Assembly (NCBI RefSeq): GCF_056712565.1
Contig: NZ_CM160072.1
DNA: 64,000 nucleotides
Direction: 5' to 3' (one strand)
Numbering within the stretch: position 1 is the stretch's first letter; each line of letters opens with the position of its first letter. A program made the position numbers and the translations under genes. The notes beneath the pieces are model-generated. The model was not told the DNA's origin and searched no databases. It saw only the letters and a program-made list of their open reading frames with translations. Below are positions 34,654 through 34,852 of the stretch, one piece after another.

Positions 34654-34713
34654 GTTATTATCAGTAGCCCTGATATGGTCAGGGCTACTGAAACTGATGA
34701 CAAACGCAAGATT

Positions 34714-34811
34714 GCCTGGTGCGCTACGCTTATCAGACCTGGCAGTGTATCGCAATATATTGAATTTTCATGATTTTGTATGCCAAATAAGGCGGTCACG
34801 CCGTATCCGGC
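34714..34811. repeat. REP/BIME cluster filling the ybiT-ybiV intergenic region
   Basis: gcctggtgcgctacgcttatcagacctggc and gccaaataaggcggtcacgccgtatccggca; preceded by ybiT terminator hairpin agccctgatatggtcagggct (34666-34686). Confidence 0.6.
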
Positions 34812-34852
34812 ATAATGACATGCACTTTCTCAATAAACTGAATTGGCGATAA

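Follow-up and report, generated by a model that had tools for sequence, protein, structure and literature searches.

The 199 bp that separate ybiT from ybiV in the Escherichia coli type strain are best read as an old, derived deletion allele. It would be the smallest of several haplotypes at a variable Escherichia site, formed by the loss of about 1.47 kb through a route other than recombination between REP sequences. We put the probability of this reading at roughly three in four.

Here, the ancestor would have been K-12-like, already having a hairpin and a BIME after ybiT. An illegitimate deletion, or the replacement of a cassette, would then have removed approximately 1.47 kb, taking with it the end of a spacer, the ybiU gene, the ybiU promoter, and the terminator of ybiV. 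Homologous recombination, crossing over in the final codons of ybiT and ybiV, would later have kept or spread the resulting allele. The same junction is carried by E. albertii, by what are essentially the B2-type E. coli, some 20% of the complete genomes, and, as at least one more divergent copy within E. coli, by WL297.

The locus and the contents of the gap

The window is the whole stretch of DNA that was analyzed, 64,000 nucleotides in length. Around the gap, it matches the chromosome of DSM 30083 = ATCC 11775, the type strain of E. coli, at 100% identity. On the plus strand, the ybiT coding sequence (33061-34653, from the list of open reading frames and RefSeq annotation) encodes an ABC-F family ATPase of 530 amino acids, identical as a protein to the YbiT of K-12. 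On the minus strand, ybiV (34853-35668, from the same list and annotation) encodes a sugar phosphatase of the HAD/Cof family with 271 amino acids. The gap is the 199 bp at 34654-34852, on which the list and the RefSeq annotation of the identical record NZ_CP033092.2 agree. A paralogue of YbiV lies some 26 kb downstream on the minus strand (60942-61751), with 52% amino acid identity and a C-terminus reading ...KHEAPFNQ; this is presumably another Cof-type HAD phosphatase.

Just 3' of the ybiT stop codon, an inverted-repeat search finds a hairpin with a perfect 13-bp stem (34661-34673 paired with 34679-34691) and a 5-nt loop. Its arms are AGTAGCCCTGA and TCAGGGCTACT in the haplotype of the window, and CGTCACCCCGA and TCGGGGTGACG in K-12; the variant of the window is also present in E. 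albertii. Two REP units follow. The first, a degenerate Y-type REP of a BIME on the plus strand (34714-34743), aligns with canonical REPs at 8215-8243 and 14973-15001 of the window, as well as with the K-12 unit. The second (34778-34814, minus strand) is inverted with respect to the first, and was recognized as an inverted repeat and by alignment to canonical REPs. Between them, alignment places a 34-bp linker (34744-34777) that carries the conserved motif GCAATATATTGAAT and whose columns are conserved across the three BIMEs of the window, K-12, and E. albertii. We take the linker to resemble the IHF consensus, and binding of IHF is predicted from its sequence.

Searches for canonical REPs that allowed up to three mismatches matched neither unit in the gap; both are degenerate, with more than three mismatches. 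Their identity as REPs was set by alignment, not by a mismatch-limited search. Column by column, the two match the canonical BIMEs at 8215-8312 and 14905-15001 of the window and the ybiT-ybiU BIME of K-12. They are imperfect palindromic units of about 30-37 bp, standing in opposite orientations on either side of a conserved linker, as REPs in a BIME do. The two other BIME-type pairs in the window have near-canonical REPs and the linker motif seen in the ybiT-ybiV element; a lone REP is found at 13257-13286. Rfam gives the gap only sub-threshold matches, to the REP-derived small RNAs naRNA4 (weakly, at the second REP) and ES036. Both strands of the gap fold far more stably than their shuffles do (z-scores of -5.0 and -5.6), and the hairpin forms on each.

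Two short segments complete the gap. By its homology to K-12, the first (34815-34841) is a remnant of the unique sequence that in K-12 connects the BIME with the stop codon of ybiU; it marks the left edge of the deletion. The second is an 11-nt junction, attggcgataa (34842-34852), delimited by long-gap global alignments. In those alignments, it has no assignable homologue in the ybiU-bearing haplotypes, and it is common to the window, E. albertii, and WL297. A haplotype block of 222 bp (34656-34877) was delimited around these features from a site-by-site table and from sliding-window and alignment-block identities.

The first-pass annotation had described a terminator hairpin and two REP units here. 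The hairpin and the REPs are present; as a terminator, the hairpin is at most putative. The stem-loop is G+C-rich, as in an intrinsic terminator, but the T/U tract that should directly follow the stem is absent, the flanking bases being GAAACTGATG on the plus strand and GATAATAAC on the minus strand. A scan of 34500-35000 for intrinsic terminators returned no terminator-like site, and a promoter scan of the gap found nothing. The terminator hairpin of ybiV (ccggagc...gctccgg), together with the YbiV C-terminus DNTSPFN, is conserved in the outgroups and in K-12, and is absent only from ybiU-less haplotypes.

Absence of ybiU from the genome

In K-12, ybiU is a gene of 1266 bp on the minus strand, encoding a DUF1479 protein and lying between ybiT and ybiV. 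The order given in the first-pass annotation (ybiT-ybiU-ybiV-ybiW) is correct for K-12, as inspection of MG1655 established. So is its statement that ybiU is absent here and that only a REP/BIME cluster separates ybiT from ybiV. The gap is indeed 199 bp, and ybiU is missing from it by comparison with K-12 and about 75-80% of E. coli. In the 64-kb window, tblastn gave no match to K-12 YbiU or to a divergent YbiU allele.

The rest of the genome was covered with a chimeric query, in which K-12 ybiU, in opposite orientation, is appended to the 1.9-kb junction of the window. Here, ATCC 11775 ranks first and has one matching place, compared with two in MG1655 and at least two in other genomes that bear ybiU. 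One matching place was also the outcome in 12 of the 12 sampled genomes that have the contiguous junction. Because alleles of ybiU with as little as about 76% identity are still picked up by megablast, the single matching place means that, to this identity, ybiU is absent at the DNA level from the whole ATCC 11775 chromosome. Two objections to the absence, that K-12 might itself lack a gene at this place or that ybiU might lie elsewhere in the genome, both fall: K-12 does have ybiU there, and the chimeric DNA query does not find it elsewhere in ATCC 11775.

YbiU is an uncharacterised protein of PF07350 (DUF1479 / Gig2-like) for which structures have been solved (2dbi, 2csg, 4rgk). Among the titles and abstracts listed by a literature search for ybiU, none deals with its absence from a lineage.

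Haplotypes between ybiT and ybiV

Haplotypes were counted among 5426 complete E. coli genomes. A contiguous ybiT-ybiV junction is found in about 20% of these (1091/5426 with a 1.9-kb query, 1053/5426 with a junction-specific 116-bp query). Approximately 4086 of the 5426 have K-12-type ybiU at 90% identity or more. About 220/5426 have, at the same position, a divergent ybiU allele that is 76% identical to K-12 ybiU in nucleotides and 84% in amino acids. In 37/5426, including ATCC 8739, a two-gene DUF6960 cassette lies between ybiT and ybiV. Among the matches listed, carriers of the junction include UTI89, several O25b:H4-ST131 strains, O6:K2:H1, BEN2908, and MP1; ATCC 25922 returned no ybiU-like match. 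Judging from the strain names, we take all of these to be members of phylogroup B2.

At least five alternative contents are found between ybiT and ybiV: nothing, ybiU, divergent ybiU, an island of glycoside hydrolase, MFS, and LacI genes together with ybiU, and the DUF6960 cassette. The interval is a small multi-allelic variable site between conserved core genes, and the window carries its minimal form.

The other forms have features of their own. The divergent ybiU is seen in E. coli 2020N21-246 (locus L003, 6001-7260); its closest sampled relative, at 89% nucleotide identity, is in the species-representative strain SCPM-O-B-8794 (L006, 5753-7009). With the allele come a ybiU-ybiV intergenic region and a ybiV C-terminus (DNIAPFNC) that are peculiar to it, next to a ybiT flank nearly 100% identical to that of the window. 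The three-gene island between ybiT and ybiU encodes a TIM-barrel glycoside hydrolase, an MFS transporter, and a LacI-family regulator; the regulator gene overlaps ybiU at the 3' end of the latter. Some E. coli have the island (L005, 3944-9021), as do about 27 outgroup loci (for example, L008, L019, L020, and L049) from about 20 other enterobacterial genera, and the ancestral site probably contained it.

Many K-12-type strains have IS621 in or next to the ybiT-ybiU BIME. IS621 is an IS110-family element that targets REP sequences. In E. coli 503025 (L086, 3279-7041), IS621 lies at the BIME and, in addition, an IS3-family element interrupts ybiU. One candidate for a further haplotype was rejected. 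This is the unannotated 2.6-kb ybiT-ybiV interval of E. coli HH97 (L004, 3519-6139), which is rich in runs of G and C, has nonsensical Pro/Gly-rich reading frames on both strands, and is probably an artefact of assembly or sequencing.

The DUF6960 cassette is AT-rich, encodes a DUF6960 protein and a hypothetical protein of 93 amino acids, and fills the whole ybiT-ybiV interval, as in E. coli N9 (L087, 2355-3386). It is also found in several E. albertii-type assemblies (L089, L090, L092, and L093). With the window, this haplotype has in common a variant 3' end of ybiV (...NKPPF(T/N)L), the homology stopping exactly at the stop codon. One of the two haplotypes, BIME-only or DUF6960, is probably derived from the other, and the shared ybiV end means that ybiU may have gone by cassette replacement rather than by simple deletion.

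This leads to a history in two steps. An AT-rich, foreign DUF6960 cassette bringing the variant ybiV end would have displaced ybiU, and a segment with the hairpin and BIME would then have replaced the cassette; the reverse order is possible as well. The ybiV end that the two haplotypes share would be so explained, and the cassette haplotype does occur both in E. albertii and in the 37 E. coli genomes that include ATCC 8739. However, the hairpin, the BIME, and the 27-bp spacer of the window are homologous to the ybiU-bearing haplotypes, not to the cassette haplotype, and a further recombination event would be needed. We regard the two steps as unlikely.

Also unlikely is a long-lived trans-species polymorphism. 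Here, the haplotypes with ybiU, without it, and with the cassette would all predate the split between E. coli and E. albertii, under balancing or niche-dependent selection on the DUF1479 protein YbiU, and B2, the extraintestinal-pathogenic group, would have become fixed for its absence.

Loss, or failure to acquire

The species-representative genomes searched with YbiT delivered at least 80 loci, a set in which E. fergusonii, Salmonella, and most of the cryptic clades are not included. Four Citrobacter species have ybiT-ybiU-ybiV-ybiW. In about 25 further genera, ybiT is followed by the glycoside hydrolase, MFS, and LacI genes, and then by ybiU and ybiV wherever the retrieved sequence extends far enough; Enterobacter, Leclercia, Kluyvera, Raoultella, Kosakonia, Buttiauxella, Cedecea, and Siccibacter are among these.

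The divergence of the gene itself can be set beside that of its neighbors. Between K-12 and Citrobacter, ybiU is 82-84% identical in nucleotides, and the flanking genes ldtB, ybiT, ybiV, and ybiW are 79-87% identical. The gene has thus diverged to the same degree as its flanks, which indicates vertical descent.

The end of ybiV was also compared. In the outgroup and K-12-type loci examined, YbiV terminates in ...AVLDNTSPFN or a close variant, after which comes the conserved terminator hairpin. The YbiV of the window ends in ...ENKPPFNL as against ...DNTSPFNS, with four of the eight residues of its last eight codons (34853-34877) changed and the terminator hairpin missing. The synteny of ybiU in the outgroups, the conserved YbiV end and terminator, and the vertical descent of ybiU together imply that the ybiU-less state is derived, which is to say that it is a loss.

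Thus, of the two possibilities offered at first, that ybiU was lost or that it was never acquired, the former stands and the latter does not, as outgroups from Citrobacter to Raoultella keep ybiU beside a ybiV with the conserved end and hairpin. The view that the loss is peculiar to this lineage must also be given up, since the identical junction is found in E. albertii.

Those who would make the ybiU-less arrangement ancestral in Escherichia, with ybiU inserted later into other E. coli phylogroups, could point to E. albertii, an outgroup that also has the ybiU-less junction, and to the block, which is about as divergent from E. albertii as its flanks are. B2 is also often placed near the base of E. 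coli. They must contend, however, with the place of ybiU beside ybiV in Citrobacter and many other genera, with its divergence from Citrobacter, equal to that of the flanking genes, and with a window that is without the ybiV terminator and C-terminus conserved in those outgroups. Further, the window keeps the spacer that in K-12 leads into ybiU. This makes an ancestral absence quite improbable. Some Escherichia lineage outside the sample may have given ybiU back to the non-B2 E. coli; even then, further down the tree, absence of the gene would be the derived state.

Endpoints of the deletion

Homology between the window and K-12 runs from ybiT through the hairpin and both REPs, and continues for 27 more bp to position 34841, the equivalent of 5042 in the K-12 locus (L001). 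Over 34752-34841, 66 of the 90 positions are identical to K-12, and homology to the divergent-allele locus (L003) likewise reaches 34841. In long-gap alignments, it resumes at the stop and last codons of ybiV. The K-12 segment that is missing is about 1.47 kb long (L001, 5043 to about 6511). It holds the last 52 bp of the BIME-ybiU spacer, ybiU itself, the 151 bp between ybiU and ybiV, where the ybiU promoter lies, and the terminator of ybiV.

Alignment with K-12 places neither endpoint inside a REP unit, where a REP-mediated event had been expected to leave them. Both lie in unique sequence, which argues for illegitimate deletion or cassette replacement and not for REP-REP recombination. Microhomology at the endpoints was considered and rejected; the GTCAGC that is shared in K-12 lies off the actual junction.

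The first-pass annotation had offered a REP-mediated deletion as one possibility. By such a route, recombination between REPs, or enzymes targeted to them, would have cut out ybiU, and the BIME would be the scar. The BIME does adjoin the deletion, the same BIME attracts the REP-seeking IS621 in many K-12-type strains, and insertion sequences (IS621, IS3) do disrupt ybiU in some strains. Nevertheless, both REPs are intact in both haplotypes, and to the right of the second, 27 bp of unique, K-12-homologous sequence have been kept before the left endpoint is reached. The right endpoint is the ybiV stop codon, and there is no REP on that side: from ybiU to ybiV, no REP-like sequence with up to eight mismatches in 29-30 nt is found in the K-12-type, divergent-type, SCPM, or Citrobacter haplotypes, four that bear ybiU. 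Nor does the gap hold a remnant of an insertion sequence. A deletion by way of REPs is largely refuted, and we consider it very improbable.

Age of the allele

The E. albertii type strain, NBRC 107761, has a gap of the same 199-bp length, with the hairpin variant, the BIME, and the 11-nt junction. At least four further assemblies with an identical E. albertii YbiV have the 199-bp gap, and others carry the DUF6960 cassette. Site by site, the window agrees inside the block with E. albertii and departs from every other haplotype of E. coli. Its identity to E. albertii is there about 90% (23 differences in 222 bp); its identity to K-12 over the shared part is about 75%. Directly outside the block, the window is 98-100% identical to other E. 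coli and 89-93% identical to E. albertii. The shared hairpin and BIME are about 25% removed from K-12, which exceeds the distance between E. coli and E. albertii. Therefore, the present K-12 haplotype is not the direct ancestor.

Within E. coli, the junction varies by 1-2% across B2, and by about 9% between the window and WL297. The latter (L099, 1362-1560) has the same ybiU-less junction between E. coli-like flanks that are 98% identical. The WL297 copy is intermediate towards E. albertii, and shows deep diversity within the ybiU-less class.

Judged by these divergences, the ybiU-less allele would be old, at least comparable in age to the split between E. coli and E. albertii. The sharp boundaries of the block would point to an old haplotype at a multi-allelic site, one that homologous recombination has moved or that has simply been kept. 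Any date for the allele is soft, of course, as REP and hairpin sequences may evolve fast by conversion or template switching.

The idea that the B2 ancestor recently received the block from E. albertii as it is today has in its favor that the block is sharply bounded and nearer to E. albertii than to other E. coli, but it is most improbable, as the block is no closer to E. albertii than its flanks are and the junction is already diverse within E. coli, so that any transfer would have been ancient or from an unsampled lineage.

Identity to K-12 also drops in two places further on, to 89-95% at about 35660-36300 (the ybiV-ybiW intergenic region) and at 36940-37160 (the 3' part of ybiW), between neighbors at 98-100%. 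This suggests additional old recombination tracts in ybiW.

Implications

The lineage would be one that lives without YbiU, and ybiV would be without a terminator of its own. The convergent ybiT and ybiV transcripts would then probably end in the hairpin and BIME that they share. The ybiU gene is to be regarded as accessory: the type strain of E. coli is without it, and so, apparently, is the B2-type lineage. Its absence would be an ancient allele rather than a recent lesion, and is ordinary variation in gene content between strains, of a well-known kind.

This matters little beyond bookkeeping for annotators and for those who analyze pan-genomes. The site is a small, clean, and unsurprising case of an intergenic interval with many alleles, which would pass between species by homologous recombination in their flanks. 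The locus could also serve as a marker, or its ybiU-less form as a natural knockout in work on YbiU function.

Comparison with known systems

The ybiT-ybiU-ybiV locus of K-12 MG1655 (b0820-b0822) has the same flanks (YbiT identical, YbiV 97.8% identical), the hairpin and BIME after ybiT, and the convergent orientation. It differs in having 1657 bp between the stop codons, compared with 199 in the window, and in having ybiU, the promoter, and the ybiV terminator. Further, the non-coding part that the two share is only about 75% identical, and the last eight codons of ybiV differ.

The E. albertii junction is alike in its architecture, its 199-bp gap, its hairpin variant, its 11-nt junction, and its variant ybiV end. 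Unlike the window, it has 23 substitutions in the 222-bp block and flanking genes to which those of the window are 89-93% identical, as against 98-100% for E. coli. E. albertii also has the alternative DUF6960-cassette haplotype.

Known BIME-1 / RIP-type REP clusters of E. coli resemble the element in the gap in having two inverted REPs, the GCAATATATTGAAT linker motif, and an extragenic position between convergent genes. The units of the window differ in being degenerate, with more than three mismatches to canonical REPs, and their IHF site is a predicted one.

Last, the site resembles the variable cassette sites known as regions of genome plasticity, where, as here with at least five, different contents lie between the same core genes and are exchanged by homologous recombination in the flanks. 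It differs from these in being very small (0.2-6.6 kb), with none of the hallmarks of an integrase, a tRNA, or a mobile element.
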